Source of the DNA: Candidatus Gottesmanbacteria bacterium
GTDB lineage: Bacteria > Patescibacteriota > Microgenomatia > JAMCYU01
Assembly: GCA_043801155.1 (NCBI GenBank)
Contig: JAZDMI010000021.1
Location: 2,683-66,682 of the forward strand
Direction: 5' to 3'
DNA: 64,000 nucleotides
Below are positions 22,704 through 37,871 of this stretch, piece by piece (position 1 is the stretch's first letter; each line of letters starts with the position of its first letter). Position numbers and translations under genes: made by a program. The notes under the pieces were generated by a model that did not search any database, was not told where the DNA came from, and saw only the letters and a program-made list of their open reading frames with translations.

Positions 22704-23012
22704 ATGCCAAAAGGCAGAATCCGTGTACGTTTAAAAGCTTATGACAGTCGGGTTTTAGATGCTTGCTGTCAGCAAATCCTTGATACGGCCGTACGGACCG
22801 GCGCTAAGGTCGTGGGTCCGATACCACTGCCAACAGACAAATCCCGTTATTCTGTTCCCAAATCCCCGTTTACCGACAAAGACAGCCGCGAAGATTTCCA
22901 AATAAGAACACATAAAAGATTAATTGATATCCTTGAGCCAACCGATAAAACCATTGATCAACTGGCCCACCTCGATCTACCTGCAGGAGTTGACATTGAA
23001 ATAAAGATGTAG
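22704..23012 (+). CDS. rpsJ: 30S ribosomal protein S10
   Basis: IRVRLKAYD...GPIPLPT. Confidence 0.95.
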
Positions 23013-23313: not shown

Positions 23314-23315
23314 AA

Positions 23316-23663
23316 ATGTCTGATATACAAAAATTAACCCAGCAAATTCTAAAATTTCGCAATAAAAGGGATTGGAAGCATTTCCATTATCCTAAGGACA
23401 TGGCCATTTCTTTGGCACTGGAGGCGGCCGAGGTTCTGGAACATTTTCAATGGAAAACCCAGGAAGAAGTTGAAGCGTATCTGAAGACGCATAAAACTCA
23501 TATCGCTGACGAACTGGCCGATGTTTTGTGGTGGGTGCTATTAATGAATCATGATTTGAATATTGATGTGATGAGGGCTTTCGATAAAAAATTAAAAATC
23601 AACGAAGAAAAATATCCGGTTGATAAAGCCAAGGGTACACATAAAAAATATACCGAGTTGTAA
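23316..23663 (+). CDS. MazG-like nucleotide pyrophosphohydrolase
   Basis: EAAEVLEHFQWK...ELADVLWWVLL, the EExxE/D motifs of the MazG family. Confidence 0.7.
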   Translation: MSDIQKLTQQILKFRNKRDWKHFHYPKDMAISLALEAAEVLEHFQWKTQEEVEAYLKTHKTHIADELADVLWWVLLMNHDLNIDVMRAFDKKLKINEEKYPVDKAKGTHKKYTEL

Positions 23664-23761
23664 GATGATATCTTTTATTTCTCAATAAATACTCTGACTT
23701 TAACTTCAATATTTGACCTCGGTGTTAAAATAGTAATTATTAGAATTATTAGGAGGCATAT

Positions 23762-23956
23762 ATGAGATATGAAAATAATTGTATGCATCCTGCCATTGTT
23801 TATATTCCGGATCTTAGGCCAGGGTCATATGATGCTAATGGTTTAATGGTTGGGTCACTGAAACATATTCCAAAAGAAAAAATTCAAAAGACAGATGTTT
23901 CAGCTAAATATAGACGAATAGGGCCTCCGATTCGTATTGTTGCCAAAGGGTATTAA
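23762..23956 (+). CDS. hypothetical protein (strong AGGAGG RBS)
   Basis: RBS aggagg 6 nt upstream; no known domain. Confidence 0.45.
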   Translation: MRYENNCMHPAIVYIPDLRPGSYDANGLMVGSLKHIPKEKIQKTDVSAKYRRIGPPIRIVAKGY

Positions 23957-23983
23957 ATTATTAATTTTCAATGTCGGCAACAT

Positions 23984-24358
23984 CTACTCTTTGTTTTTTT
24001 CTAATTCGTCTTTAATTTGCGGAGCGATATTATCCAAGAAAATCTGATCAACAAGTTCTTCGGTTATATGAGCTTCTCTTGGCCCAAAATGCTGCATAAA
24101 AACATGATGTTGCCCTATTTTATCCGGACTTAATTGTATTTGACAATAAGTATTGGGGAAGCTGCGGTGGATAAAATTACAAATGATTGTTCCACTTTTA
24201 AGCATAACTGTTTCCCATACAGAAATTTGATTTGGTTTCAAATCTTTATGTTTTGGAACTGGAATATCCTCTCCGACGAGCAGATAAACATCAGGCCAAT
24301 CTAAAGGATTGTACTCATTAAGAGAAATTGGTTGTCTTTCTTGTTTAGAGTTATTCAT
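23984..24358 (-). CDS. hypothetical protein
   Basis: 124-aa ORF directly following a truncated paralog gene start. Confidence 0.5.
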   Translation of the reverse strand: MNNSKQERQPISLNEYNPLDWPDVYLLVGEDIPVPKHKDLKPNQISVWETVMLKSGTIICNFIHRSFPNTYCQIQLSPDKIGQHHVFMQHFGPREAHITEELVDQIFLDNIAPQIKDELEKNKE

Positions 24359-24360
24359 AT

Positions 24361-24396
24361 TTAAACTTGTTCTCGAGCTTCAGGATTTATTGACAT
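24361..24396 (-). pseudogene. 11-codon remnant (MSINPEAREQV*) of a third copy of the 25620..25982 family, with its promoter/leader module retained upstream (24397-24450)
   Basis: Nucleotide similarity to the start of 25620..25982 (ATGGCAATAAATCCTGAAACTCTAGAACAA). A 4-nt deletion creates the TAA stop. Confidence 0.45.
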
Positions 24397-24550
24397 AAGA
24401 AAGATATTCTACACATTCAAGTTATAATATACAAATCCTGACTAATTCCCACATCGGTATTCTACCGAAACGGCTTTCCATATAAATGTGCCATTTCTGA
24501 GTGAGACACACTATGATAAAATGGGAACAATAACGGAAAGAAATTAACAC

Positions 24551-25057
24551 ATGTCTAAAACAAAAACAAATGAAATTGTTTATGCATTTATAGATAGCCA
24601 GAATCTCAATTTAGGAGTCAGGAGTCAAAATTGGATTTTAGATTTTGACCGTTTTCGTGTTTATTTAAAAGAAAAGTACGGAACAAAGAAAGCATTTTTG
24701 TTTATAGGTTATGTTGAAGGCAATCAAAGCTTATACACATATTTACAAAAATCCGATTATATATGCATATTTAAGCCTACGTTGGAACTTAATAAAAATA
24801 AAAAAGTAAGAATAAAAGGTAATGTTGATGCTGAATTAGTGCTTCATTCGATGATAGAGTATCCCAATTATGATAAGGCTATAGTTGTTTCCGGTGATGG
24901 AGACTTTCATTGTTTGGTGGAGTATTTAAAGGAGAAAAATAAGCTATTGAAAATAATTGTTCCAAATAGAAAATATTCTTCCCTGCTTAGAGAATTTAGT
25001 AACTATATAGTTAATATAGGGTTGATGCGAAGCAAGTTAGAATTGAGAAAGAAATGA
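24551..25057 (+). CDS. NYN-domain (LabA-like, PIN-related) protein
   Basis: VYAFIDSQNLNLG ... VVSGDGDF motifs typical of NYN/LabA. Confidence 0.65.
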   Translation: MSKTKTNEIVYAFIDSQNLNLGVRSQNWILDFDRFRVYLKEKYGTKKAFLFIGYVEGNQSLYTYLQKSDYICIFKPTLELNKNKKVRIKGNVDAELVLHSMIEYPNYDKAIVVSGDGDFHCLVEYLKEKNKLLKIIVPNRKYSSLLREFSNYIVNIGLMRSKLELRKK

Positions 25058-25059
25058 AA

Positions 25060-25112
25060 AGAGAGGCATTCCCTCGGGACGAAACCCTTTGGTAGTCCTC
25101 TCATCGTGATAA
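25060..25112 (+). terminator. GC-rich stem-loop after the NYN gene (GAGAGG...CCTCTC outer arms, GGG-ACGAAA-CCC inner hairpin), no U tract
   Basis: Seen directly. Confidence 0.35.
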
Positions 25113-25198
25113 AAACATTATACTAAATTTACCTCACTACTGTCAAATACTGTATAGTCTCAGAGGGAAAAAGCATTTTTCTACTTAATGTTTAAAGC

Positions 25199-25579
25199 TT
25201 ATAATTTGGGGAAAATTCCCGAGCTCATCACTTCAATAGCTCTAAGAATAGCTTCCCGGGATTCTTTAGTAGGTTGCACGTCGTCAATAATTGAATCATT
25301 TAGTTTGTATTTTGGCAATAATCTTCTGGCCGCGGCAATAAATTGTGTCTCGAATTCCATTGTCATTTCTCTATTAGGAACACTTTCGAAACCCGGAGAA
25401 TTAAGTATTTCCAGATATGTTTTTGCAGTTCTGACATTACCTTTCAGAGCATCTTGATCTAAAAGAAGCGTAGAACTTCCCCAAGGATCCCTTTCTAATA
25501 ACTTTTGGGCGACGACCCGATCATAAACTTCTGCACGTATATTTTTAAATGTTTCACTGGCATTTGACATAAGAGGCAC
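25199..25579 (-). CDS. hypothetical protein, paralog of 25620..25982
   Basis: Shared blocks LLLDQDALKGNV / LILDQFALIEHV, ILNSPGFE / ILNSSGYE, LLPKYKL / LIPKYGL. Confidence 0.55.
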   Translation of the reverse strand: MPLMSNASETFKNIRAEVYDRVVAQKLLERDPWGSSTLLLDQDALKGNVRTAKTYLEILNSPGFESVPNREMTMEFETQFIAAARRLLPKYKLNDSIIDDVQPTKESREAILRAIEVMSSGIFPKL

Positions 25580-25619
25580 ATTCTACCTTATTTAGGAAAA
25601 AAAGTATTCCCCTTTAAAT

Positions 25620-25982
25620 TTATTTTTGATTATTAGCTATATATAGAAAAACACCTGCCCGGCAAATTTGGTCTGGTTTGATTTTTTCTAAATAATCCGG
25701 CTTAAGTCCGTATTTTGGTATTAATCTCGAAACGGCATCAATTAAAGATGTCTCACGTTTTAAAAAATCTGCCCGATCAGGAAAGTTCTCATAGCCGGAT
25801 GAATTTAAAATTTCGATAATAGCTTTTGATACCATAACGTGTTCGATTAAGGCAAACTGGTCTAGGATAAGAGAACTTCTATTACAAGGATCCGGAACAA
25901 GGACTGATCTCGCCAGGTAAATATCAGTCATGATCTCAGGTGTTAAACCTAGTTGTTCTAGAGTTTCAGGATTTATTGCCAT
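25620..25982 (-). CDS. hypothetical protein, tandem paralog
   Basis: See above; own promoter/leader module (25983-26040) duplicated at 24397-24450. Confidence 0.55.
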   Translation of the reverse strand: MAINPETLEQLGLTPEIMTDIYLARSVLVPDPCNRSSLILDQFALIEHVMVSKAIIEILNSSGYENFPDRADFLKRETSLIDAVSRLIPKYGLKPDYLEKIKPDQICRAGVFLYIANNQK

Positions 25983-26151
25983 AAGAGAGATATTCTACAT
26001 ATTTGAGTTATAATATACAAATTCTGCCAAATTCCCATCTCTAAATTTATCTATGTCTCGGATAATAACTCATTAAAATGTATAGGCCAGCCACGTACAG
26101 TCGCCGAAATCCCGTTAATTAGACCCATATTACGGTTATATTAACGGTATA

Positions 26152-26183
26152 TTGACAAAATATCGTTAATATGTTAACATATT
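26152..26183 (+). promoter_or_regulatory. Fic promoter (TTGACA -35) overlapped by a perfect 16-bp palindrome AATATGTTAACATATT abutting the start codon; putative auto-operator. Further TTAACG/CGTTAA motifs lie upstream (26111-26150)
   Basis: Palindrome verified by reverse-complementing. Confidence 0.5.
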
Positions 26184-27056
26184 GTGATGAGATTAACGCG
26201 GTTACAGGTGATTTCTGAACTGTTTGCCCAGTACCAGACAAAAAAAATAAACAAAGAATCTCTTCTTTCTATGGTCGATGATGTGGAAATTGCAGAGAGG
26301 GTCTACAACTCCAATGCCATAGAAAACTCGACACTCACCTTGCCCGAAACGGAAAAAATCCTGCTTCAGCTTGAAGTGAATAGGCATATATCGCTTAGAG
26401 AAGTTTTTGAGGCAAAAAATTTAGCCCAAGTCTACAACTATATTAAAAATACTGCCCCTCAAAAACCACTTTCCCTAGATATGATTTTATTACTTCATAA
26501 AATCCTGCTTACCAATATCCGTGATGAAGTTGCAGGACAGTTTCGTACGGGAAACGAAATGGTGCGGGTAGGAAATCACATCGGCATACCCTCGGAATTT
26601 ATAAGTCAAAGGATTCAAGAAATGCTCGTTCAATATAATTCAGACATGGAAATTTCCTTTATTCATAAAATTGGCCGTTTACATGCGGAGTTTGAAAGTA
26701 TTCACCCTTTTATTGACGGAAATGGCAGGATCGGACGAGTTCTTAATAACTATTTACTTATCCGTGAAGGATTTCCTCCGATTATCGTTAGAAATAAAGA
26801 TAAAGAAACTTATTATGATGCCCTGCGTTCATATGACACTTCGCATAATTTTAAACCAATGATGCGCATAGTTGAGTTAGCTGTTTTAGAATCTTTTCAT
26901 AAACGTCTGGCTTACCTTGAGGGACAGCGGATAATTCCTCTTACTGAATATGCGGCTACTCAAAAAAGATCTTTCCATACTCTTTTAAATTCAAGCCGTC
27001 GTCAAACTATTCCTGCTTTTCGCGAGAAAGGCGTCTGGAAAATCGGAGTAAAATAG
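26184..27056 (+). CDS. Fic-domain protein (AMPylator / Fic-Doc family)
   Basis: Canonical Fic motif HPFIDGNGRIGR. Confidence 0.85.
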   Translation: MMRLTRLQVISELFAQYQTKKINKESLLSMVDDVEIAERVYNSNAIENSTLTLPETEKILLQLEVNRHISLREVFEAKNLAQVYNYIKNTAPQKPLSLDMILLLHKILLTNIRDEVAGQFRTGNEMVRVGNHIGIPSEFISQRIQEMLVQYNSDMEISFIHKIGRLHAEFESIHPFIDGNGRIGRVLNNYLLIREGFPPIIVRNKDKETYYDALRSYDTSHNFKPMMRIVELAVLESFHKRLAYLEGQRIIPLTEYAATQKRSFHTLLNSSRRQTIPAFREKGVWKIGVK

Positions 27057-27065
27057 GAGAAAATC

Positions 27066-27105
27066 AAAAAAGTCAAAAGAGAGGAAAGAGGAGAGAGAAA
27101 AATTT
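27066..27105 (+). repeat. purine-rich approx 40-nt leader repeat (AAAAAAGTCAAAAGAGAGGAAAGAGGAGAGAGAAAAATT), copy 1
   Basis: Direct repeat of 27583-27623; the pair flanks the GNAT gene. Confidence 0.6.
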
Positions 27106-27106
27106 A

Positions 27107-27577
27107 ATGAAAATAAATAAACAAATAAAAATCGAAAAACTTACCGAGAAGAGGTTTAATGAAGCGGTTAATTTGGTTTTGGTCGCCAACCTTGATACGC
27201 GGGAAGAAATTGAACATCACCTAAAACATCTGGATGCCCATTATATTGCCCTTGATAATGATAAAATTGTCGGAGTTATCGGTTGGTATCAGGATAATGT
27301 TCATTATGCCAATGAGGCTATGGGTGATAAATTTCCCGGAGAAGAGGCCTACTGGGTGGGATTTTTTACCACTGATAAAAATTACCGGAGGCAGGGAATT
27401 GGTTTTGCCCTGCTTCAAAAATTGGAGCAGGTAATAAAAGAAAAAGGAGAGGATAAAATTTGGGTATCCTCGGTGCCGGAAACAAAAGACTATTATCAAA
27501 GACAAGGATTTGAATTAGTTTTAATGGGATATATCAACGGCAACCAAAAATGTTTTATGGTTAAAAAACTTCAGTAA
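27107..27577 (+). CDS. GNAT-family N-acetyltransferase
   Basis: Acetyl-CoA binding motif RRQGIGFALL. Confidence 0.8.
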   Translation: MKINKQIKIEKLTEKRFNEAVNLVLVANLDTREEIEHHLKHLDAHYIALDNDKIVGVIGWYQDNVHYANEAMGDKFPGEEAYWVGFFTTDKNYRRQGIGFALLQKLEQVIKEKGEDKIWVSSVPETKDYYQRQGFELVLMGYINGNQKCFMVKKLQ

Positions 27578-27582
27578 AAATT

Positions 27583-27623
27583 AAAAAAGTCAGAAGAGAG
27601 AGGAAAGAAGAGAGAGGAAAATT
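27583..27623 (+). repeat. purine-rich leader repeat copy 2 (AAAAAAGTCAGAAGAGAGAGGAAAGAAGAGAGAGGAAAATT) immediately before hsdM
   Basis: About 85 percent identical to copy 1. Confidence 0.6.
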
Positions 27624-29099
27624 ATGTTTGAACAATCATTTAAAAATATTGATGATATTCTTCACCGGGATGCCGGATGCGCCACGGAATTAGATTATAT
27701 AGAACAAACTTCATGGATTCTATTCTTGAAATACCTTGATGATTTAGAGGAAACAAAAAGGAAAGAAGCGGTTTTAAAAAATAGACAATATGAATATATT
27801 ATTGCTCCTGAATTTCGCTGGAGCGCTTGGGCGGAACCAAAAACGAAAGATGGCAAATTAGATATGAATAAGGCGTTAACCGGAGACGATCTAAGAGACT
27901 TTGTAAATTTAAAACTTTTTCCATATCTTAAGAAATTTAAAATCGACAATAACGAGAATCAAACAACTATTGAATATAAAATTGGAGAAATTTTCAGTGA
28001 GCTAAAAAACAGGATTGAAAGCGGATACAGACTTCGTGAAATTCTTAACATTGTAGATACGATGCATTTTCGAACCGATAGCGATAAACACGAACTCTCA
28101 CATCTTTATGAAGCTAAAATTAAGAACATGGGAAATGCCGGACGAAACGGCGGAGAATATTACACTCCTCGTCCGCTTATTAAAACGATAGTTAAGGTGG
28201 TAATCCCAAAGATTGGCGATACTATATATGATGGAGCCTGCGGATCTGCCGGATTTCTAGTAGAGTCTTTTGATTATCTTAAACAAAGTAAAGAATTATC
28301 TACCTCAGAATCCGTAAAGCTACAAAATAATACTTTTTACGGTAAGGAAATAAAATCACTTGCATATATTATCGGTGTTATGAATATGATTCTTCATGGT
28401 ATTGAAGCGCCGAATATTCTCCATACAAATACGCTTGCTCAAAACATCAATGATATCGAGGAAAAAGATCGGGTTGACGTAATCCTTACGAATCCGCCAT
28501 TTGGTGCAGGAATAGGTCGGGAAATTCAGCAAAATTTTCCGATAAAAACCGGCGAGACGGCATATCTTTTCCTCCAACACTTTATCAAAATGCTCAAAGC
28601 CGGAGGAAAAGCCGGAGTGGTGATTAAAAATACTTTTCTTTCTAATACTGATAACGCATCCGCTTCGCTTCGTAAACGTCTTCTTGAGAGTTGTAATCTT
28701 CACACCGTGCTTGATTTGCCTGGCGGCGTCTTTACGGGAGCAGGTGTAAAAACCGTGGTATTGTTTTTTGAAAAAGGCTCGCCAACCAAAAAAGTATGGT
28801 TCTATCAGTTAAACCTTGACCGCAATCTAGGCAAAGGTAATCCCTTAAGCGAAGCGGATCTATCAGAATTCGTCGAACTGCAAAAAACCAAAGCAGGTAG
28901 CAAAAATTCTTGGAGCGTAGACATAAAAGATATTAATCAAACAACATTTGATTTATCGGTAAAGAATCCAAACAAAGGGAGAGAAGTAACCCTACGCGAA
29001 CCGAAAGAGATTTTGGAGGGAATGAGGAAGCTAGACAAGGAAAGTGAAAATACATTTAAGATTATTAAAAACATATTAAATACTGGAATAAATGAATAA
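27624..29099 (+). CDS. hsdM: type I restriction-modification system methyltransferase subunit
   Basis: N6-adenine MTase motifs: GEYYTPRP (motif I region), LTNPPFG (motif IV). Confidence 0.92.
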   Translation: MFEQSFKNIDDILHRDAGCATELDYIEQTSWILFLKYLDDLEETKRKEAVLKNRQYEYIIAPEFRWSAWAEPKTKDGKLDMNKALTGDDLRDFVNLKLFPYLKKFKIDNNENQTTIEYKIGEIFSELKNRIESGYRLREILNIVDTMHFRTDSDKHELSHLYEAKIKNMGNAGRNGGEYYTPRPLIKTIVKVVIPKIGDTIYDGACGSAGFLVESFDYLKQSKELSTSESVKLQNNTFYGKEIKSLAYIIGVMNMILHGIEAPNILHTNTLAQNINDIEEKDRVDVILTNPPFGAGIGREIQQNFPIKTGETAYLFLQHFIKMLKAGGKAGVVIKNTFLSNTDNASASLRKRLLESCNLHTVLDLPGGVFTGAGVKTVVLFFEKGSPTKKVWFYQLNLDRNLGKGNPLSEADLSEFVELQKTKAGSKNSWSVDIKDINQTTFDLSVKNPNKGREVTLREPKEILEGMRKLDKESENTFKIIKNILNTGINE

Positions 29100-29730
29100 T
29101 TTATTAGCCTTGTTAGAGAAATATCAGACCCAAAATATTATCGCCGTCATAGCTTTAATATTGGCTTATTTAGCGTACAGAAAATCGGTTATTGATGAGT
29201 ATAGGAGTTGGTTGGATCTGGCAAAATCTTTCCAACACGAATTGAATTACGCAAAATATTGGATAGGAAATAGTTATGAAAAGATGATGAGTATAGATTG
29301 GTCGAATCCCTCCAGATTTGTTTATCCTCTTACCGCCGAAGCCGCGAAAGCGTTAATTTGGAAAGGACATCCGCCAAAGAGAATATTCCCAGATGATTTT
29401 TTTGATAAATTAGCTATATATAACGAACGTATTCAGGCATTTAACCATTTTTTAATGATTCAAGGAATCAATTATGTAGTGGCGGAAGTTGATAATAAAA
29501 ATGAAAAAATTTCAGAAAAAGCAAAGCATATTAATTATATCATCCATAATGATCTTATAGGTAGCCAGGATAATTATCACTTACACAATCTTTATAATTA
29601 TTTTAGTTGTCAATTGAAAATGATTGAAAAAGCAGATCTTTTGCTGATTCCATGGTATTTTAAATATCCTGAACGAATAGTTCTTGCTACTATTTTTATT
29701 TATATTATAGTTGATTATTTTATTCAGTGA
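29092..29730 (+). CDS. hypothetical membrane protein embedded between hsdM and hsdS (translationally coupled at both ends)
   Basis: Overlaps the hsdM stop by 8 nt and the hsdS start by 4 nt; N- and C-terminal hydrophobic segments; no known domain. Confidence 0.55.
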   Translation: MNNLLALLEKYQTQNIIAVIALILAYLAYRKSVIDEYRSWLDLAKSFQHELNYAKYWIGNSYEKMMSIDWSNPSRFVYPLTAEAAKALIWKGHPPKRIFPDDFFDKLAIYNERIQAFNHFLMIQGINYVVAEVDNKNEKISEKAKHINYIIHNDLIGSQDNYHLHNLYNYFSCQLKMIEKADLLLIPWYFKYPERIVLATIFIYIIVDYFIQ

Positions 29731-30884
29731 TTATGAAAACCAACTGGCAAACAAAAAAACTCGAAGATGTAGCAAATGTTCATGGTGGTGGTACTCCACC
29801 AACCAGTCACCCAGAATATTTTCAAGGAAATATAAATTGGTATTCTCCAACTGAGATACCTAAATTCGAAGTTACAACGCTCAAAGAAAGTCAGAAAAAA
29901 ATTTCCGATTCTGCAATAAAATTTACTACTATTTCAAGAACAAATTCAGTCCTTTTAACAAGCAGAGCTACAATTGGTACGGTTGGTATTTTGTCAACTG
30001 CTTCCGGATATAGTCAGGGCATAAAAGGAATCGAACCGGGTCCCGAACTAGACTCGTGGTATCTAGCGCATTGGTTGAGATCAAATAAAGATGAGATTAT
30101 TAATAAGGCTTCTGGTACAACCTTTAAGGAAATTAGTACAAGTGAAATAAAAAAGCTAGAAATTCCTATCCCTCCAATTGCTCAGCAAAAGAAAATTGTT
30201 AATTCCATAGAGAATATCTTGGGAAAAATTGAAAAGGCAAAAGAGAATACAGAGAAAAATCTGCAAAACGCCAAAGCTCTTTTTGAATCATATTTACAAA
30301 GTATTTTTGCGAATCCAGGAAAAGATTGGGAAGAGAAAAGATTAGGTGATGTTTGTATGGTCATTGCTGGTCAATCACCGGAAGGAAAATTCTATAACAA
30401 ATCGGGTAGGGGTTTACCTTTCTATCAGGGAAAAAAAGAATTTGAAGAAAGATATCTTGGGAAACCAACAACATGGACAACAGACATTACCAAAGAGGCG
30501 CAAAATGGTGATATTTTAATGTCAGTTCGAGCCCCTGTGGGACCTATTAATTTTGCAACTCAAAAAATTTGCATCGGTCGGGGTCTTACCGCAATTCGAG
30601 CCGGAAAAGATATTGATGAAAACTTTTTATTTTATAATTTACTCTCAAAAGAAAAAGAAATCATTGGTAATGCCGGAGCTGTATTTGCATCAATCAATAA
30701 ATCCGACATTGAGAGTTTAAAATTATTTTTACCATCTCTTCCCGAACAAAAATCTATTGATATAAAACTTGACACAATTTATGCCGAAACAAAAAAACTG
30801 GAAGCAATTTATAAACAAAAATTAGCTGATTTAGAAGAGCTAAAAAAATCGGTTTTGAGAAAAGCATTTAAAGGAGAATTGTAA
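29727..30884 (+). CDS. hsdS: type I R-M specificity subunit (two target-recognition domains)
   Basis: Duplicated TRD architecture with the conserved central (LAEQKKIV) and C-terminal (LPEQKSI) spacer repeats. Confidence 0.9.
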   Translation: MIMKTNWQTKKLEDVANVHGGGTPPTSHPEYFQGNINWYSPTEIPKFEVTTLKESQKKISDSAIKFTTISRTNSVLLTSRATIGTVGILSTASGYSQGIKGIEPGPELDSWYLAHWLRSNKDEIINKASGTTFKEISTSEIKKLEIPIPPIAQQKKIVNSIENILGKIEKAKENTEKNLQNAKALFESYLQSIFANPGKDWEEKRLGDVCMVIAGQSPEGKFYNKSGRGLPFYQGKKEFEERYLGKPTTWTTDITKEAQNGDILMSVRAPVGPINFATQKICIGRGLTAIRAGKDIDENFLFYNLLSKEKEIIGNAGAVFASINKSDIESLKLFLPSLPEQKSIDIKLDTIYAETKKLEAIYKQKLADLEELKKSVLRKAFKGEL

Positions 30885-30886
30885 TT

Positions 30887-31606
30887 ATGAAATATATAAA
30901 AAAGCTTAATATGGTTTGTTTTAACTTACTGGAACTGAAGACGCTATATAAGACTGACAAAGTAATAAAAATTCTTATAGAAGCAAATAAAACAAGGTGT
31001 AATATCGTTAATTCATCTAAAGAACAATCTAAAAAGATCGTAGATTCAGTCGTGAAAGGAGATTTAAAACAAAAGGAGGAAATTGAAATATTCTCGGCGT
31101 TAAGCTTATGTGCCTTATTTTTCGAGAATGATAGTTTTATAGGTTTCGTTTTGAAGGACGGCTATGATGTAGGAAAAAACCCAATACAAACATTAGAAGG
31201 TTTGAAAAAGGCTGCGAAAGAAGATACTCTTACTGATTTTGCAATTATCACCAAAAGTGGAATGCGAGAATTTCAGCTAAAACAATTTTATAGACAAAAA
31301 CTGGAGACGGAAGACCTTTTTAACTTTATAAAAGAAAAAATTGAACATTATGGTGGTAATTTTGGTACCACTGCTTTGTTATTCTCGGTTAGAGGTGATG
31401 GAATAGGACCTTGTCAAAGCAATATTTCTTTTAAAGAAATTCACGAGAGGCTTTGCAAACTTAATTTAGACAGAAATGGATTAATTTTGATTTGGTATAA
31501 TGATGGCAACAAAAAACAGGTGATAATTGAAGTTTATCCTGATTTATCGGCATGCCAAAAAGAAACAGGTATTCACGATCAAACAAAAAATACCCTATAT
31601 AATTAG
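30887..31606 (+). CDS. hypothetical protein embedded between hsdS and hsdR
   Basis: 3-nt gap after hsdS, 11 nt before hsdR; no Walker motif or known domain. Confidence 0.55.
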   Translation: MKYIKKLNMVCFNLLELKTLYKTDKVIKILIEANKTRCNIVNSSKEQSKKIVDSVVKGDLKQKEEIEIFSALSLCALFFENDSFIGFVLKDGYDVGKNPIQTLEGLKKAAKEDTLTDFAIITKSGMREFQLKQFYRQKLETEDLFNFIKEKIEHYGGNFGTTALLFSVRGDGIGPCQSNISFKEIHERLCKLNLDRNGLILIWYNDGNKKQVIIEVYPDLSACQKETGIHDQTKNTLYN

Positions 31607-31617
31607 ATCTAAAAATT

Positions 31618-33972
31618 ATGAACGAAGCAGAAACACGAGCCGAATATATTGATCCAAAACTGAAAGCTAGCGGTTGGGGAGAAGTTGAGGGATCAAAAGT
31701 ATTACGGGAATATCGTATCACCGAAGGACGGATTTTGGTTGGTGGAATACGTGCTAAACCGGAAATTGCTGATTATATCCTCGTATACAAAAACCAAAAA
31801 CTGGCAATTATTGAAGCAAAGCCGGATGAATCTGCCGTTACAGAGGGTGTCGCTCAAGCAAAAGTCTACGCCCAGAAGATGCAGATTGATTATACCTACT
31901 CAACCAACGGTAAAGAAATTTATCAAATTTCCATGAAATCCGGGAAAGAAGAGATTGTAGATGCGTTTTCGACCCCGGATGAGTTATGGAAAAAAGTGTA
32001 TTCAGATCAAAATGAATGGAAAGAGAAATTTGCTTCAATTCCTCTTGAGGGAGAATTAGGGAAACGATACTACCAGGAATCAGCCATTAATAACGTTATG
32101 AATGCGATTGCTGAAGATAAGAAACGAGTGCTACTTACTATGGCAACAGGAACCGGTAAGACAGCGATTGCATTTCAGACCTCTTGGAAGCTATATCAAA
32201 CGCGTTGGACTTTACAACGTGATGGAAATCGGCGTCCGAGAATTCTTTTTCTTGCCGATAGAAATATTCTTGCGGATCAAGCGTTTAATACCTTCGGTGC
32301 TTTTCCGGAAGATGCATTAGTTCGAATTAATCCTCTTGATATTCGGAGGAAGGGATTAGTTCCGATGAACGGAAGTATCTTTTTCACTATTTTTCAAACA
32401 TTTATGAGCGGACCGCAGGGAACACCTTATTTTGGTGATTATCCTCCTGATTTTTTTGATTTTATTGTCATTGATGAATGTCATCGTGGAGGAGCTAATG
32501 ATGAGGGAAACTGGCGCGGAATTTTAGAGTATTTTTCTCCAGCAGTTCAGCTTGGATTAACGGCCACACCAAAAAGAAGAGATAACGTAGATACATATAG
32601 ATATTTTGGCGATCCGGTATATATTTATTCACTTAAGGAAGGGATTAATGATGGATTTTTGACACCTTTTAAGGTGAAACGTATCCAAACAACCCTTGAT
32701 GAATATGTGTACACATCTGACGACCAAGTAATTGAAGGAGAAGTTGAAGCCGGTAAGGTATATAAAGAGCCTGATTTTAATAAAATCATAGAAATAAAAG
32801 AGCGCGAGGCAAAACGAGTTCAATTGTTGCTTGAGAATATAAACCAGAACGAGAAAACAATTGTTTTTTGTGCAACCCAGGATCATGCCCTAGCGGTACG
32901 GGATCTGGTAAATCAATATAAAAAAAGTAAAGATCCTTTTTACTGCGTCCGGGTAACGGCTAATGACGGAGCGCGTGGCGAGCAATATTTACGAGAATTT
33001 CAGGATAATGAAAAGACGATTCCTACGATATTAACCACTTCACAAAAGCTTTCTACTGGTGTTGATGCCAGAAATATCCGTAATATCGTTCTTATGCGTC
33101 CGGTTAATACCATGATCGAATTTAAACAGATTATTGGGCGTGGAACTCGGTTATTTGACGGAAAAGAATATTTTACAATCATTGATTTTGTTGATGCGTA
33201 TAAACTTTTTTTAGATCCTGAATGGGACGGCGAACCGATAGCGAATATTTGCCCAAAGTGTAACCAGGATCCCTGTATTTGCGAAAAAACTCCGCCGAAA
33301 GTTTGTCCTATTTGCGGGCAAAGACCGTGTATTTGTATTAGAGAACCAAGAATTTGTCCAATATGTGGAAAATTCCCATGTGAATGTGAATCAAAAAAGA
33401 AAATAAAAATAAAACTGCGCGATGGCAAAGAGCGAGAGATTCAACATATGATTTCTACTTCTTTTTGGGGGGCAGATGGTAAACCGATGTCGTCGGAGGA
33501 GTTTATTCAAAGCCTTTATGGAGTATTGCCGGATCTGTTTAAAAACGAAGAGGAACTTCGGAATATATGGTCAAATCCTGTGACAAGGAAACGATTTTTG
33601 GAACGGCTTTTTGATATTGGCATTGATTTAGAACAGATAGAAAATATTACCAAGATTGTTAATGCTGAACAATGTGATTTTTATGATGTGCTCTTGTATC
33701 TTGCATTTAGCAATCCACTCATTACACGTAAACAGCGGGCTGAGAAGAATAAAAATCATATTTTTGAAAATTTGTCTGATAAAGAAGGAGAATTTCTCAA
33801 CTTCGTACTGAAAAAATATGAAGAAACCGGATTTGAAGAACTTGACGAGGAGAAATTACCAATACTTCTGAATCTAAAATACCACGCTATTGCAGACGCA
33901 GAAGAAGCACTAGGAAATGTAGAAAATATTAGAGCAACATTCTTAGGATTTCAGGAAGATCTCTATAGCTAG
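31618..33972 (+). CDS. hsdR: type I R-M restriction subunit (PD-(D/E)xK nuclease plus SF2 helicase) with a C-terminal triple Cys-repeat
   Basis: ADYILVYKNQKLAIIEAK nuclease motif, TMATGTGKT Walker A, VIDECHRG DEAH box; three CPxCxxxPCxC repeats at approx 33247-33400. Confidence 0.9.
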   Translation: MNEAETRAEYIDPKLKASGWGEVEGSKVLREYRITEGRILVGGIRAKPEIADYILVYKNQKLAIIEAKPDESAVTEGVAQAKVYAQKMQIDYTYSTNGKEIYQISMKSGKEEIVDAFSTPDELWKKVYSDQNEWKEKFASIPLEGELGKRYYQESAINNVMNAIAEDKKRVLLTMATGTGKTAIAFQTSWKLYQTRWTLQRDGNRRPRILFLADRNILADQAFNTFGAFPEDALVRINPLDIRRKGLVPMNGSIFFTIFQTFMSGPQGTPYFGDYPPDFFDFIVIDECHRGGANDEGNWRGILEYFSPAVQLGLTATPKRRDNVDTYRYFGDPVYIYSLKEGINDGFLTPFKVKRIQTTLDEYVYTSDDQVIEGEVEAGKVYKEPDFNKIIEIKEREAKRVQLLLENINQNEKTIVFCATQDHALAVRDLVNQYKKSKDPFYCVRVTANDGARGEQYLREFQDNEKTIPTILTTSQKLSTGVDARNIRNIVLMRPVNTMIEFKQIIGRGTRLFDGKEYFTIIDFVDAYKLFLDPEWDGEPIANICPKCNQDPCICEKTPPKVCPICGQRPCICIREPRICPICGKFPCECESKKKIKIKLRDGKEREIQHMISTSFWGADGKPMSSEEFIQSLYGVLPDLFKNEEELRNIWSNPVTRKRFLERLFDIGIDLEQIENITKIVNAEQCDFYDVLLYLAFSNPLITRKQRAEKNKNHIFENLSDKEGEFLNFVLKKYEETGFEELDEEKLPILLNLKYHAIADAEEALGNVENIRATFLGFQEDLYS

Positions 33973-34061
33973 TTTTTTGCATTTTCTGTCCTTCCTAATT
34001 CAATCAATTTTTATTATGGCTTTTAATTAGAATTAGTGTTATAATAATAGTGGTTTAAGCG

Positions 34062-34110
34062 GTCTGCGTTTGGCAGACGACTATTGCAGCCTATCAGGGC
34101 TGCTTTTTTT
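34062..34110 (+). terminator. two hairpins (GTCTGC-GTTTG-GCAGAC; GCAGCC-TATCAG-GGCTGC) followed by T7: rho-independent terminator
   Basis: Perfect stems and U tract read directly. Confidence 0.7.
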
Positions 34111-34130
34111 ATGGAAGGAGGTGAAAAAAG

Positions 34131-34430
34131 ATGCAAATTGATAAAGATAAATCAACTTATGTTCTTCCGTATCAGGTAATAATTCTTGATGCGACTGATG
34201 CTTATTACTATGCAGATATAATGGATAATATGAAACTCTTTGATGAGACAGATTCATTATCTTTAGCAGAGAAATTGGCCGATGCTCTATTTATTGTATA
34301 TAACTATAAATGGAACAGTCTGGAAGAAATGAATAAGGTTGACGGAGGATATGATATAAGAGTTTATGATCAAAAATATTCTTGTGTCTATGCAGCTCAT
34401 AAGAAATATCTGAATAAATGGATAATCTAA
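34131..34430 (+). CDS. hypothetical protein (strong GGAGGTG RBS)
   Basis: RBS present; no known domain. Confidence 0.5.
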   Translation: MQIDKDKSTYVLPYQVIILDATDAYYYADIMDNMKLFDETDSLSLAEKLADALFIVYNYKWNSLEEMNKVDGGYDIRVYDQKYSCVYAAHKKYLNKWII

Positions 34431-34458
34431 CTGGTAAATAAAAGGATAAAATAAAAAT

Positions 34459-34902
34459 ATGAAAAAAAGTTACAGCGCCGGAGGATTGGTGGTTAATAAA
34501 TATGGTCAGATATTGGTTGTCAACCAATACGGAAACTCATGGTCATTACCTAAAGGGCATATTGAACCCGGAGAAGATATTTTGACTACGGCAAAAAGAG
34601 AAATCACCGAAGAATCCGGGATAACTGATCTAAAGTTAATAAAAGAGTTAGGGTCTTACGAAAGGCCGAGACTCGGATTAGACCCAAGAAATAATGACAT
34701 CTCGAAAGTAAAAAATATAACTCTTTTTCTATTTGTAACAGATCAACTCGAGACAAAACCTCAAGATTTAGACAATCCCGAGGCTATTTGGCTTAAACCA
34801 AGAAAAGCAGTTGGACGTCTGACGAGCAAGAAAGACAAGGAGTTTCTTCAAAAAAGTCTACGTTTGATAGATCTTAAAAAATTAATTAGCTTCACACCTT
34901 AA
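34459..34902 (+). CDS. NUDIX hydrolase
   Basis: Nudix box GHIEPGEDILTTAKREITEESGI. Confidence 0.8.
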   Translation: MKKSYSAGGLVVNKYGQILVVNQYGNSWSLPKGHIEPGEDILTTAKREITEESGITDLKLIKELGSYERPRLGLDPRNNDISKVKNITLFLFVTDQLETKPQDLDNPEAIWLKPRKAVGRLTSKKDKEFLQKSLRLIDLKKLISFTP

Positions 34903-34931
34903 AGGTGGACTAGGTTCACACCTTCTTCCTT

Positions 34932-34995
34932 TTGCCTTTTTGGGACGGCTGATTTAAATCACATTTTTGCATTTTCGTTTCTTCTGACCTAAACT
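34932..34995 (+). promoter_or_regulatory. two tandem copies of the island promoter module (TTGCCT-17-TAAATC; TTGCAT-17-TAAACT)
   Basis: Hexamers and 17-nt spacers read directly; ATG of the next gene at 35006. Confidence 0.5.
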
Positions 34996-35005
34996 TCAAG
35001 TAGAT

Positions 35006-35242
35006 ATGAATAGTCACGTAAGGTTTATAAAGGCAATTAATATCTGCCTTAAATATGACGAAATAAACACCCATTTACTTCAAAGAAAATTAATGATCGG
35101 TTATTCTACCGCACATATAATTTTCAAGAAACTAAAGGAATTAAAAGTTATAACCGGAGAAAAATATATCTATAATCCCTTTGGAAAAGTTAAAGTTGGA
35201 ACAGTTGACAAAAAGACTGCCAGGTTTTATTTAGTCAACTAA
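35006..35242 (+). CDS. stand-alone FtsK-gamma-like winged-helix DNA-binding protein
   Basis: THLLQRKLMIGYSTAHIIFKKLKELKVI resembles the FtsK gamma motif (SxLQRRLRIGYNRAARLIE...G). Confidence 0.55.
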   Translation: MNSHVRFIKAINICLKYDEINTHLLQRKLMIGYSTAHIIFKKLKELKVITGEKYIYNPFGKVKVGTVDKKTARFYLVN

Positions 35243-35261
35243 TAAATTTTGTAAATTTCTT

Positions 35262-35290
35262 TGCCTTTTTGAGTATGATGATCTAAACTG
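35262..35290 (+). promoter_or_regulatory. island promoter module TTGCCT-17-TAAACT
   Basis: As above. Confidence 0.45.
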
Positions 35291-35298
35291 GGATTAGA

Positions 35299-35814
35299 GT
35301 GGATATTGATATTAGTGGTCTTTTCAGAAAATCTTTCATTGACTCCTTACCCACCTTATTTTATTTATTAATTCCAATAATAATAATTTCAGGTCTGGTT
35401 ATTGCCATAAAAATTGGTTATTATTTTTACCGCCAGCATATCTATAATAAGGCCGGGTTGGATAAAATTGATAAAATGCCCGGTTACGTTTTTGAAGAAT
35501 ACCTTACAAATCTGTTTGCCCGGTTAGGTTACAGAGTAAATCATATTGGTAAGTTTGGAGATTTTGGGGGAGATTTAATTATCGAAAAAGATGGAATGAA
35601 AACATTAGTTCAGGCGAAAAGATCAAGTGATAGAATAAGAGAGAAAGCAATTCAGGAAGCCGTAACTGCAAAAGAGTACTACCATTGTGATAAAGCTATG
35701 GTAGTTACTAATAATTATTTTTATAAACATGCGTGGACGTTGGGCAAGGGAACAAATATAGACTTATGGGCAAGAAATAAATTGGCTGAAGTTATCTCTC
35801 AGAATATAAATTAA
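35299..35814 (+). CDS. membrane-anchored Mrr-type (Mrr_cat, PD-(D/E)xK) restriction-endonuclease-domain protein
   Basis: N-terminal TM helix; FEEYLTNLFARLGY...GDFGGDLI...LVQAKR catalytic-core pattern. Confidence 0.65.
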   Translation: MDIDISGLFRKSFIDSLPTLFYLLIPIIIISGLVIAIKIGYYFYRQHIYNKAGLDKIDKMPGYVFEEYLTNLFARLGYRVNHIGKFGDFGGDLIIEKDGMKTLVQAKRSSDRIREKAIQEAVTAKEYYHCDKAMVVTNNYFYKHAWTLGKGTNIDLWARNKLAEVISQNIN

Positions 35815-35819
35815 TTCTT

Positions 35820-35848
35820 TTGCCTTTTTGGGTCTGCTGATTTAAACT
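35820..35848 (+). promoter_or_regulatory. island promoter module TTGCCT-17-TAAACT
   Basis: As above. Confidence 0.45.
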
Positions 35849-35867
35849 AATATTATAGGAATATTCA

Positions 35868-36584
35868 ATGATTAAAATTAATACCACATTTATTAATACT
35901 TCTTCTGATAATTCTTCAAAAGGTTCTCCGGGGAATATACAATTTAACTTTAAATCATCATATTCTTTTAACAACAAATTATTATTTCATTTAGATTTTA
36001 AAGATCCTTCTCTCTATTTGCTATTATTTACAAATTTATCAACTATTTATTTTGCCTATATAGAACACTGGAATCTTTTAACAGTGATGTGGATATACTG
36101 GTTCCAGAGTATAATCATTGGTTTATTCACGTTTGTTAGACTAATAAACTTGCGAAATTATAATTCTCGGGCAATCTCTTTTATTATTAGTTATGGAATA
36201 TTTCATATGGGATTTCTGGTTTTTCTATTGTTAGGATTTTTAGGCAATGCTACTAGGGGAATAGTCTCTGAATTTGGTTTTGTTTTGATGTCCGCCTTTT
36301 TATTTTTCGTCAACCACTTATTTTCTTATTTTTATAATAAAGATCGTGATCAGGAAGGATTTATTTTTCACAAAGATGTAGATAGAATAATCTCGATTTC
36401 ATATATGCGTATAATACCCATGCATATAATAATTATTCTCGGGCAAATTATAACTTCAATTTTTTTATCGGAGGCAAGATACACTCTTTTTCTCTTTTTA
36501 TTTTTAAAGACTTATGCTGATTTATATTCCCATACACTTAAGCATACATCTGCTGCTTCGCCAATAGATGTAAAGAATTCTTAA
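35868..36584 (+). CDS. hypothetical polytopic membrane protein
   Basis: At least five hydrophobic helices; no known domain. Confidence 0.5.
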   Translation: MIKINTTFINTSSDNSSKGSPGNIQFNFKSSYSFNNKLLFHLDFKDPSLYLLLFTNLSTIYFAYIEHWNLLTVMWIYWFQSIIIGLFTFVRLINLRNYNSRAISFIISYGIFHMGFLVFLLLGFLGNATRGIVSEFGFVLMSAFLFFVNHLFSYFYNKDRDQEGFIFHKDVDRIISISYMRIIPMHIIIILGQIITSIFLSEARYTLFLFLFLKTYADLYSHTLKHTSAASPIDVKNS

Positions 36585-36596
36585 ATTTTATAATTT

Positions 36597-36625
36597 TTGC
36601 ATTTTCTGCCATTTTGATCTAGACT
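36597..36625 (+). promoter_or_regulatory. island promoter module TTGCAT-17-TAGACT
   Basis: As above. Confidence 0.45.
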
Positions 36626-36646
36626 TCGTAAACAAGAGGACCATAT

Positions 36647-37519
36647 ATGACTTTTAATCCAAATGCTGTTTTCATTTCTCCTTCATCCATCTCTGATTTT
36701 AAAACATGTCCACAAACTTATTATTATCGGAATGTCTATAGAAATCCGAAGACTGGATTAAAAATACAAATAATTAATCCAAAACTAGCGCTTGGTGCAA
36801 CAGTGCATGATATATTAGCTCAATTCCTACACACCCAGGGAATAGAAAAAACTAAAGATCAATTACTCAATATCCTTCAGAGATATTGGGGACAGATTAC
36901 TGGTGAAAAAGGAGGATTTAAAACAGAAGAGGAAGAAAAACAATACAAAGAAAGGGCATCAAAAATGTTGGATATTTTTTGGGGAAATAACCATTTTAGG
37001 GAGGTACAACCGGTAAAACTACCCGATTTCCCAAAGGTATATTTTGATGACGATTTAATTCTCACTGGAAAACTTGACTGGATTGAGCTAGAGACAGAAA
37101 ATAAATATCACATCATTGACTTTAAAACTGGAGAAAACGAAGAACGAAGCGATTCTATGCAATTACCTATTTATGCCGTTCTTGCTTCAAATATTTTAAA
37201 AACCTCTGAAATAAAAGCAAGCTATTGGTATCTTGATAGAGATGCCGACTTGAAAAAATTCGATCTGCCCGATTTAAAAGAAACAACAGAAAAACTTAAA
37301 AAAATTGGTTATGTAATTAAAAATAGTCGGTTAACAAATTCTTTTAAATGCAGTTCGGGATACGAGTCGTGTTGGTCTTGTAAAGATTTGCTATCCATTA
37401 GCAATGGAAAGGGTAAACTTGTTTCTGTTGATTACAATCGTAAACAAGAAGTTTATATAATTCCTCCAACAGAAGATAAGCCTATATTAGAAAAACCTAT
37501 TGATGACATTCCTTTCTAA
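36647..37519 (+). CDS. Cas4/RecB-like PD-(D/E)xK nuclease with a 1+3 cysteine (Fe-S type) arrangement
   Basis: N-terminal Cys (KTCPQ), D...IIDFKTGE core, C-terminal CSSGYESCWSC. Confidence 0.6.
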   Translation: MTFNPNAVFISPSSISDFKTCPQTYYYRNVYRNPKTGLKIQIINPKLALGATVHDILAQFLHTQGIEKTKDQLLNILQRYWGQITGEKGGFKTEEEEKQYKERASKMLDIFWGNNHFREVQPVKLPDFPKVYFDDDLILTGKLDWIELETENKYHIIDFKTGENEERSDSMQLPIYAVLASNILKTSEIKASYWYLDRDADLKKFDLPDLKETTEKLKKIGYVIKNSRLTNSFKCSSGYESCWSCKDLLSISNGKGKLVSVDYNRKQEVYIIPPTEDKPILEKPIDDIPF

Positions 37520-37547
37520 AGAATATGTTTATATCTTCTTCTTCTTT

Positions 37548-37576
37548 TTGCATTTTCTGACTTTCTGATTTAGACT
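37548..37576 (+). promoter_or_regulatory. island promoter module TTGCAT-17-TAGACT
   Basis: As above. Confidence 0.45.
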
Positions 37577-37612
37577 ATGGGTAACTATAGAAATTTAAAT
37601 TGGTGAGTAAAA

Positions 37613-37828
37613 ATGATAAAAATAAAAATTGCTGATTGGGAGAAAAAGAAATATCCGCTCGAAGATCCTAAAGATATTGAGGTTTTAGGGAAAATTCATG
37701 AATTGGAAAATCTTCCGCTTTCTTCCGAAGACAAGAAGTTGGTTAATTTTATCCGCACCCAACTTGAGGAAGATTGGCAAACTCCCTGTCTTAATTTCCT
37801 CGAAGATATCTTAAAGAAATATAGATAG
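37613..37828 (+). CDS. hypothetical small protein
   Basis: ORF with a GGTGAG RBS; no known domain. Confidence 0.4.
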   Translation: MIKIKIADWEKKKYPLEDPKDIEVLGKIHELENLPLSSEDKKLVNFIRTQLEEDWQTPCLNFLEDILKKYR

Positions 37829-37871
37829 AACCTAAAATTGCCTTTTTGGGTTTACTTTTTGAAACTGTTGA

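Follow-up and report, generated by a model that had tools for sequence, protein, structure and literature searches.

We analysed a 64,000-nucleotide (nt) stretch of DNA from a Candidatus Gottesmanbacteria bacterium (GenBank assembly GCA_043801155.1, contig JAZDMI010000021.1, positions 2,683 to 66,682 of the forward strand), which is called the window below. It carries a type I restriction-modification (R-M) operon in which two additional genes, here named orfX and orfY, are embedded between hsdM and hsdS and between hsdS and hsdR, respectively (Table 1). The gene order hsdM-orfX-hsdS-orfY-hsdR, proposed in an initial annotation of this DNA, was confirmed by an open reading frame (ORF) map of positions 24000-38000 of the window, by reading of the junctions and by family scans; all five ORFs are on the + strand at the expected positions. 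As judged from the protein families present, the backbone of the operon is a type I R-M system of family IB. HsdR matched the EcoAI/FtnUII equivalog NF046051 of NCBIfam over its full length (3e-243, 809.6 bits, cutoff 550) and contains the Pfam domains ResIII, Helicase_C, EcoEI_R_C (1.6e-22) and HSDR_N_2, with the nuclease motif D...EAK and the DECH helicase motif both intact. HsdM (PADLOC MTase_I, 1.4e-158) and an HsdS with two target-recognition domains (TRDs) complete the set. A hairpin resembling an intrinsic terminator closes the operon downstream of hsdR. It was the strongest terminator-like site on the + strand of this region in a consensus scan, and the sites within the operon are weaker (3 GC pairs).

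The five genes are tightly packed. The ATG of orfX overlaps the hsdM stop by 8 nt (ATGAATAA), and the TGA of orfX shares 4 nt with a GTG start of hsdS at 29727 (GTGA). By analogy with the gene calls in the sister locus L004, an ATG at 29733, 2 nt past the orfX stop, is the likelier start of hsdS. An overlap between orfX and hsdS therefore hinges on the choice of start codon, and the two genes abut with either start. The initial annotation had orfX overlapping both neighbors; the 8-nt overlap with hsdM stands, and the overlap with hsdS applies only if GTG 29727 is used. orfY starts 2 nt past the hsdS stop with a GGAG ahead of its start codon, and is separated from hsdR by an 11-nt spacer.

The exact orfX and orfY proteins have database entries as hypothetical proteins, encoded on a 272-kb contig of a Candidatus Gottesmanbacteria metagenome-assembled genome (MAG). 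A single-sequence search found 14 relatives of orfX, and a profile search found 30. For orfY, a word-indexed search gave 4 relatives and an exhaustive profile search gave 185 cluster representatives (E ≤ 1e-3). The ratio of nonsynonymous to synonymous differences (pN/pS) of orfX was 0.27 in comparison with L004. For orfY compared with the sister locus L010, the nonsynonymous and synonymous divergences (dN and dS) were ∼0.08 and ∼0.36, a ratio of ∼0.22. The corresponding ratios for hsdM and hsdR were 0.18-0.21. Both embedded genes are thus under purifying selection, comparable to that on the hsd genes. Pfam, NCBIfam and PADLOC gave zero matches to either protein at E ≤ 0.1, the ATPase, HEPN and PrrC models of these libraries included, in agreement with the initial annotation, which had seen no PrrC, Abi or ATPase signatures in them. 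A search of PHROGs returned only two weak matches to orfY (E ∼0.03), both to families of unknown function. In PADLOC v2, 0 families were matched by orfX, by orfY, or by a distant 262-amino acid (aa) form of orfX from locus L029; 116 relatives of orfY gave only scattered single matches (E 2e-4 to 9e-3) with no consistent subset. orfX and orfY are therefore not among the published searchable candidates for embedded defense genes.

We compared the window with three contigs (L004, L010, and L032) that carry operons of the same R-M lineage, with HsdM 77-80% and HsdR 72-82% identical to those of the window. The Hsd genes are shared and the genes between them differ. In L004, an orfX (67% identical) lies between hsdM and hsdS, and the hsdS-hsdR junction holds a gene for an 87-aa protein with two transmembrane (TM) segments. 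In L010, the hsdM-hsdS junction holds genes for a 173-aa Zn-ribbon/coiled-coil protein, a DUF2130 protein and an OLD-family ATPase, and an orfY (84% identical) lies between hsdS and hsdR. L032 is without orfX; it has a more distant orfY (36% identical) between hsdS and hsdR, and its operon is preceded by a helix-turn-helix (HTH)-M78 gene pair and followed by a GmrSD gene. The 87-aa protein of L004 and the 173-aa protein of L010 were considered as degraded forms of orfX or orfY and were rejected, being similar to neither. The GmrSD gene 3' of hsdR in L032 encodes a GmrSD/HEC-06-like type IV enzyme.

The DNA alignments (blastn) show where the operons part. Homology between the window and L004 is unbroken over hsdM and orfX (27619-29761) and comes back at hsdR. 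Homology to L010 ends at 29036, inside the 3' end of hsdM, and is again unbroken from 30729 to 33195, covering the 3' end of hsdS, orfY, and part of hsdR. Within hsdS, only the conserved parts in the center and at the C-terminus align with the sister loci at the DNA level, which fits variable TRDs. Since homology breaks at the hsdM-hsdS and hsdS-hsdR junctions, we concluded that these junctions act as two separate slots. orfX and orfY assort independently among the four sister operons and so do not form one two-gene module. The initial annotation had put them forward as a single module, which cannot be maintained: slot contents differ among the four operons and the two genes occur together in the window only.

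Recognized defense genes were found in the slots of other operons, namely the OLD-family ATPase gene of L010, a homolog of PD-Lambda-3_A in L025, and a DUF3800/PDC-M04A gene in L029. The three-gene insert of L010, in the hsdM-hsdS slot, includes an OLD-family ATPase-TOPRIM nuclease (PADLOC Old 5.7e-57, AriA 8.4e-35) and may be a composite OLD/PARIS-like system embedded in the R-M operon.

Thirteen genomic contexts of orfX could be read. In 8 of them the gene is part of a type I operon, and in 10 it belongs to or adjoins an R-M or DNA methyltransferase (MTase) locus. The gene lies between hsdM and hsdS in the window, L003-6, L016/18, L017, and L025-27. In L007/8 and L015 it follows an antisense M78/HTH pair and precedes a split hsdS; in a Saccharibacteria MAG (L001/14) it comes after an MTase-S pair. 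The 262-aa form of L029 is located between hsdS and hsdR. Distant forms adjoin an N6_N4 methyltransferase gene (L022) or lie 2.5 kb from a type II methyltransferase and MvaI/BcnI endonuclease pair (L023/24). In L019, orfX follows genes for a reverse transcriptase and a PD-(D/E)XK nuclease. Two contigs, L028 and L030, carry orfX with no R-M gene on the contig (none within 5-6 kb). Where orfX meets hsdM outside the window, the genes abut directly (L004) or overlap by 4 nt (L016, L017, and L025).

orfX was 46-62% identical between operons in which HsdM is only 24-31% identical and HsdR is unrecognizable by tblastn. Since it is far better conserved than the adjoining HsdM, orfX moves between, or is retained across, unrelated type I families; at least three HsdM/HsdR lineages have it embedded in their type I operons. 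All named sources of orfX belong to the candidate phyla radiation (CPR): Gottesmanbacteria, Paceibacterota, and Saccharibacteria. No copy of orfX was found in searches of plasmids and viral contigs. The suggestion that the two genes are candidates for R-M-associated accessory functions was borne out by this linkage of orfX and by the presence of orfY in the hsdS-hsdR slot of three type IB operons. The initial annotation had also considered that profile searches might place both proteins in ordinary housekeeping families without hsd linkage; they did not, and hsd linkage was found elsewhere.

The gene that follows orfX also varies. In L025, a metagenomic contig, as well as in L026 and L027, a 152-aa protein with a PD...EIK motif (PADLOC PD-Lambda-3_A, 2.3e-28) is encoded directly after orfX within a type I R-M operon. 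A PD-(D/E)xK nuclease is listed as part of PD-lambda-3 (PMC10952713), which is an abortive infection system (PMC13190303). The PD-Lambda-3_A system was earlier reported only from Proteobacteria (bioRxiv 10.1101/2024.10.26.620412). In L016, L017, and L018, whose orfX is 68% identical to the L025 copy, orfX is followed instead by a gene for a 150-154-aa protein carrying the sequence WFR(H/N)GLCHEY. No Pfam or PADLOC model matches this protein. Its RNxxxH/RHxxxH motif is reminiscent of HEPN RNases, and it may be a candidate small HEPN-like effector. The slot 3' of orfX is thus itself variable and nuclease-rich. A functional pairing of orfX with nucleases would fit this pattern but does not follow from it.

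Some of these loci have features of their own. HTH and M78 (ImmA/IrrE-like) peptidase genes recur beside orfX and orfY loci, and the L032 copy matched PD-Lambda-2_B at 5.9e-44. The hsdS of L007 (also L008) appears to be split: a 105-aa ORF with an HsdS N-terminus (WPVKKLGEI) overlaps a 262-aa Methylase_S ORF. This could reflect a frameshift, a phase-variable hsdS, or a half-size hsdS. The genes ahead of orfX in the Saccharibacteria MAG encode a 790-aa HSDR_N_2 and N6_Mtase/Eco57I protein and a 483-aa Methylase_S protein. This is an unusual fusion of a nuclease domain with a methyltransferase, unlike the classical three-subunit type I system.

An alignment of 31 orfX family sequences showed invariant residues Y29, W57, Y62, G92, N111-E112-R113, F117-N118, Q124, N148, and H152. 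An N-terminal hydrophobic helix (∼16-29, consensus ALILAYLAY) followed by a near-invariant R30-K31-S32, and a C-terminal hydrophobic helix (∼195-207), are conserved across the family and enclose a helical bundle of ∼160 aa. Kyte-Doolittle peaks over 19 residues reached 1.6-2.3 for the N-terminal and 1.7-2.95 for the C-terminal helix across the family. The AlphaFold2 (AF2) model of orfX was all-helical (13-59, 83-91, 103-130, 138-156, 164-185, and 193-211), with a mean predicted local distance difference test score (pLDDT) of 83.7 and a predicted template modeling score (pTM) of 0.75. From hydropathy, orfX is predicted to be membrane-anchored, probably via both terminal helices. The bundle is predicted to face the cytoplasm, given the basic R30-K31 after helix 1, the K/R before helix 2, and the very short termini. 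A Foldseek search with the model against PDB and BFVD gave nothing below E = 0.4, and the family profile gave nothing meaningful against Pfam and PDB sequences. The pattern R113-x5-H119 was examined as a HEPN motif and rejected: distant members have Q, A, E, or F in place of H119, and the lenient matches of the 31 members included no HEPN Pfam family.

The conservation of orfY was counted over the 116 aligned members, which are 18-84% identical to orfY. E67 and D117 are invariant (100%), position 130 is occupied by Q (104 members) or E (the other 12), and K132 is 99% conserved. F87, L106, F129, Y155, N205, and P218 are conserved at more than 90%. The initial annotation had found no recognizable PrrC/Abi/ATPase motif in this protein. 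The alignment does show a recognizable catalytic signature, as the pattern E...D...(Q/E)xK is typical of PD-(D/E)xK nucleases. The QxK variants of these enzymes are catalytically active, Mrr and HinP1I being examples. The AF2 model of orfY, built from only 4 sequences, places helices at 63-78 and 141-155 and strands at 84-89, 118-122, 125-132, and 164-169. The predicted core order is alpha-beta-beta-beta-alpha-beta, as in restriction-endonuclease-like PD-(D/E)xK enzymes; in this model the first helix carries E67, D117 marks the start of strand 2, and strand 3 contains Q130-x-K132. The D-x12-QxK spacing of orfY is the same as that of an Mrr_cat protein encoded further downstream in the window (Table 1). 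Based on the signature and the predicted fold, orfY is probably a PD-(D/E)xK nuclease of the QxK variant.

The orfY family occupies the hsdS-hsdR slot in three type IB operons of one lineage, those of the window, L010, and L032; in L032, the gene overlaps hsdS by 4 nt. The Hsd backbone is ∼75% identical between the window and L032 and the slot gene only 36%, which indicates that the slot gene was replaced or has diversified fast, in keeping with a conflict gene. Outside R-M, one orfY relative (L011/12) is beside genes for an M78 peptidase and a PIN/DUF4411 protein. Another is near genes for a caspase-like protease, SocA/Panacea, GIY-YIG, Fic, and NUDIX proteins. The contig of one further context, L031, was too short to judge. 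Judged by gene content, the relatives outside R-M are in defense-island-like loci, and because they stand there without Hsd proteins, orfY does not depend on these. Searches of phages and plasmids found no match to orfY. A 546-aa protein (P0181) was rejected as an orfY fusion: it is a DUF5776 repeat protein and the match is spurious.

The operon is located in a low-GC stretch (∼23000-38000) that is rich in defense-type genes (Table 1). GC content is 0.30-0.37 over most of 23-38 kb, vs. ∼0.41-0.45 directly upstream (19-23 kb). Two adjacent minus-strand ORFs upstream of the operon look by eye like tandem paralogs; they share the pattern ...L(L/I)LDQ.AL...ILNS.G(F/Y)E... and neither has a Pfam match. 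No tRNA gene was found anywhere within the window. In HsdR itself, a cysteine-rich insert between the helicase and EcoEI_R_C domains is formed by three tandem CPxCxxxPCxC repeats (ICPKCNQDPCIC / VCPICGQRPCIC / ICPICGKFPCEC). The alignment of the sister HsdRs of L004 and L032 shows a charged K/E-rich linker in its place, and the DNA homology to L004 is interrupted over exactly this part of hsdR. The insert is lineage-specific and could be a zinc-binding module.

Table 1. Coordinates of the operon, of neighboring features in the window, and of features on other contigs (positions on the contig named)
Feature	Location	Strand	Description
hsdM, 491 aa	window 27624-29099	+	type I R-M methyltransferase subunit; NPPF and S-adenosylmethionine (SAM)-binding motifs; Pfam N6_Mtase 1.5e-65 and HsdM_N
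orfX, 212 aa	window 29092-29730	+	cargo of slot 1, hsdM-hsdS junction
hsdS, 385 aa	window 29727-30884	+	Pfam Methylase_S 1.5e-44, two stretches corresponding to two TRDs; PADLOC Specificity_I 4.3e-90
orfY, 239 aa	window 30887-31606	+	soluble; cargo of slot 2, hsdS-hsdR junction
hsdR, 784 aa	window 31618-33972	+	type IB (EcoAI/EcoEI family) restriction/translocase subunit
Cysteine-rich insert of HsdR	window ∼33241-33390		three tandem repeats
Intrinsic-terminator-like hairpin	window 34086-34113 (hairpin itself 34086-34103)	+	7-bp stem, 5 GC pairs, T7 tail
NYN nuclease	window 24551-25057		
ORF, 126 aa	window 25199-25579	-	adjacent to next ORF
ORF, 120 aa	window 25620-25982	-	
Fic protein	window 26184-27056		PADLOC PDC-S04 3.7e-36, SoFic 2e-29
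GNAT	window 27107-27577		
NUDIX	window 34459-34902		
FtsK-gamma-like winged HTH	window 35006-35242		
TM-anchored Mrr_cat endonuclease	window 35299-35814		Pfam Mrr_cat 3.6e-25; 3.7 kb downstream of orfY
DUF6498 membrane protein	window 35868-36584		
PDDEXK_1/Cas4-like nuclease	window 36647-37519		
Three-gene insert	L010 2151-5157		hsdM-hsdS slot
152-aa PD...EIK protein	L025 7624-8082		after orfX
150-154-aa WFR(H/N)GLCHEY protein	L016 4202-4654; L017 1082-1546; L018 2573-3025		after orfX
Apparently split hsdS	L007 8615-9714		
Fusion protein and Methylase_S protein	L001 4134-7948		
HTH-M78 / GmrSD genes	L032 4321-5403 and 11185-12969; L007 6904-7886; L011 8851-10456		

Embedding of additional genes in type I operons is not new, as PrrC, Campylobacter Rlo, TgvAB, and the catalog of Payne et al. 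precede this work. PrrC in the hsd operon of EcoprrI (type IC) is the accepted example of an embedded second-line defense (PMC3874165). Like orfY, it is a non-Hsd gene between hsdS and hsdR inside a type I operon and is co-expressed with the Hsd subunits. Unlike PrrC, an ABC-ATPase fused to a HEPN RNase, orfX and orfY have no P-loop, match no PrrC, RloC, or HEPN model, and are too short, and the backbone here is IB, not IC. PrrC is also almost exclusively R-M-embedded, whereas orfY stands alone in some loci. TgvAB, in the type I operon of VPI-2 of Vibrio cholerae, was shown to be an independent nuclease-based defense that complements R-M (PMC11411939). TgvAB and Campylobacter Rlo resemble the genes studied here in being initially unknown genes that interrupt a type I operon, and TgvAB is our favored functional model for orfY. 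In contrast to TgvAB, a two-protein GmrSD/DUF262-DUF1524 system, orfY consists of one protein of 239 aa, which bears a PD-(D/E)xK-type signature and shows no similarity to GmrSD.

Payne et al. (2024) listed 3,231 families of proteins encoded within BREX, DISARM, or type I R-M systems as embedded candidates (10.1101/2024.01.29.577857). The logic of such guilt-by-embedding candidates (HEC, PDC; PADLOC-DB v2) is the one used here, with type I R-M among the host systems, except that orfX and its 262-aa form match no PADLOC v2 model and the orfY relatives match none consistently. By gene order, both orfX and orfY are recurrently placed inside a known multi-gene defense system, orfX in at least three HsdM/HsdR lineages and orfY in three operons. 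With Mrr_cat and other PD-(D/E)xK enzymes, orfY shares an acidic residue on a helix, a D at a strand start, and (Q/E)xK on the next strand; its D-x12-QxK-R/Q spacing is that of the Mrr_cat protein of the window. It differs in that no nuclease hidden Markov model matches orfY members meaningfully, and in its extra regions (1-60 and 170-239) with the conserved N205 and P218. For orfX, the likeness to SNIPE is purely conceptual: SNIPE combines a membrane anchor and a cytoplasmic domain in a defense context. SNIPE is PD-lambda-1 (an equation with PD-lambda-3 was considered and is wrong), and it shows that membrane placement of a nuclease can give self/non-self discrimination in DNA-targeting immunity (PMC13190303). 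SNIPE is one polypeptide with TM, DUF4041, and GIY-YIG nuclease parts; orfX is similar to neither of these two domains and has two terminal hydrophobic helices.

We consider it moderately likely that orfX and orfY are two independent embedded defense or accessory genes, hosted in a CPR bacterium by a type IB operon that is intact and probably functional. The operon has two cargo slots, hsdM-hsdS and hsdS-hsdR, each of which would hold an independently acquired, co-transcribed, and translationally coupled passenger. orfY, as a small stand-alone PD-(D/E)xK nuclease, would form a second autonomous DNA- or RNA-cleaving layer co-expressed with R-M, either type IV-like or abortive-infection-like. 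orfX would be a membrane-held R-M-associated accessory or effector with its bundle towards the cytoplasm.

Several points weigh against this reading. Embedding alone is no proof of a defense role, and the profile and fold searches linked neither orfX nor orfY to a characterized protein with statistical significance. The orfY model is of low confidence (pLDDT 59.8, pTM 0.61), the best part being ∼81-170 with block means of 58-80 (69-80 for the core blocks). Local alignment (hhalign) of orfY with nuclease domains assembled in this work (HsdR N-domains, Mrr_cat, PDDEXK_1, NucS, NERD, and PD-Lambda-3_A-like) gave probabilities of ≤2.2%, indistinguishable from negative controls. The top local alignment with the Mrr_cat protein of the window brings D, Q, and K into register, but at a probability of 0.2% (E 0.3). 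When the 116 orfY members were compared with Pfam at E ≤ 1, no family, Mrr_cat or other, appeared consistently among the 25 listed of 107 matched, and the orfY profile gave nothing meaningful against PDB sequences. The best Foldseek matches of orfY were XPF/ERCC1 nuclease-fold chains, which are not significant (E 0.14-2.3). For orfX, the hydrophobic cores are only ∼13-15 residues long and could form an oligomerization core instead of membrane anchors. The census of contexts is small (13 for orfX, 6 for orfY) and biased towards contigs long enough to read.

An alternative modeled on PrrC, in line with the anti-restriction sensing named in the initial annotation, is that orfX (as a membrane disruptor), orfY (as a nuclease), or both act as latent toxins that are silenced by HsdMS(R) and released by a phage anti-restriction protein, leading to abortive infection. 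The embedding of both genes and their translational coupling to hsd genes fit this model, as do the overlap or abutment of orfX and hsdM in several lineages and the homolog of the abortive-infection-type PD-Lambda-3_A directly after orfX in L025; PrrC itself is a precedent (PMC3874165). However, orfX is conserved across Hsd proteins of 24-31% identity, accompanies type II or orphan methyltransferases in some loci, and occurs in two others that lack R-M, which makes a specific co-evolved silencing interface unlikely. orfY relatives are found alone in non-R-M loci and hence are not lethal when Hsd partners are lacking. Neither protein has an ATPase or sensor domain, and the mobility of both genes among unrelated Hsd backbones argues somewhat against a guard of this kind, which we regard as unlikely. 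Slightly less likely still is a structural accessory role of orfX, in which it would tether or localize the type I enzyme, or partner nucleases, to the cytoplasmic membrane near the site of DNA entry, with orfY an unrelated passenger. The overlapping stop and start codons at its conserved hsdM-hsdS position suggest stoichiometric co-production of orfX with Hsd proteins. The predicted two-helix anchor with a cytoplasmic bundle is consistent with a tether, as is the presence of orfX at methyltransferase and R-M loci other than type I. Holubova and colleagues reportedly described type I enzymes of E. coli associated with the membrane. The SNIPE study on membrane placement of a nuclease points the same way (PMC13190303). 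Most type I systems, however, work without an orfX-like protein, the sister operons L010 and L032 have none, and around two of the orfX loci 5-6 kb are free of R-M genes.

Two further explanations have far less in their favor. A single system made up of both genes, with the R-M operon as its scaffold, would explain the co-occurrence in the window, and small nuclease-like genes do follow orfX elsewhere (L025, L016/17). The independent assortment of the two genes speaks against it, as an orfY homolog was found in 0 of the 12 other orfX contexts and an orfX homolog in 0 of the 5 other orfY contexts, and we consider such a system extremely improbable. Hardly more probable is that orfX and orfY are irrelevant hitch-hikers or mis-called ORFs unrelated to restriction. 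Homology assigns no function to them, which would fit, but purifying selection is near the hsd level, homologs number dozens to hundreds, placement in the same slot recurs across deep divergence, and polar residues are invariant.

The favored reading, two independent passengers in two slots, leaves room for a more specific, doubtful role of orfX. It is conceivable, at rather long odds, that orfX is a dedicated membrane adaptor that places type I enzymes or partner nucleases (orfY, the PD-Lambda-3_A-like protein, or the RNxxxH/RHxxxH protein) on the cytoplasmic side of the membrane, where incoming DNA appears. The evidence for this consists of the predicted topology and the gene order. If true, the orfX adaptor would add spatial self/non-self discrimination to discrimination based on methylation. 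As background, CPR bacteria rarely carry CRISPR-Cas (PMC6509639), and some of them, in the Saccharibacteria, take up DNA by natural competence (PMC10187176).

What is new here are two families outside Pfam, NCBIfam, and PADLOC v2, and two discrete slots defined by the comparison of four operons. Genes nested in R-M operons have repeatedly proved to encode new immune functions, as with PrrC and TgvAB, and the four sister operons with differing slot contents amount to a natural experiment. The defenses of CPR bacteria are poorly known, and the members of named source come from these bacteria. If orfX localizes or regulates restriction at the membrane, it would bear on how type I enzymes meet incoming DNA.

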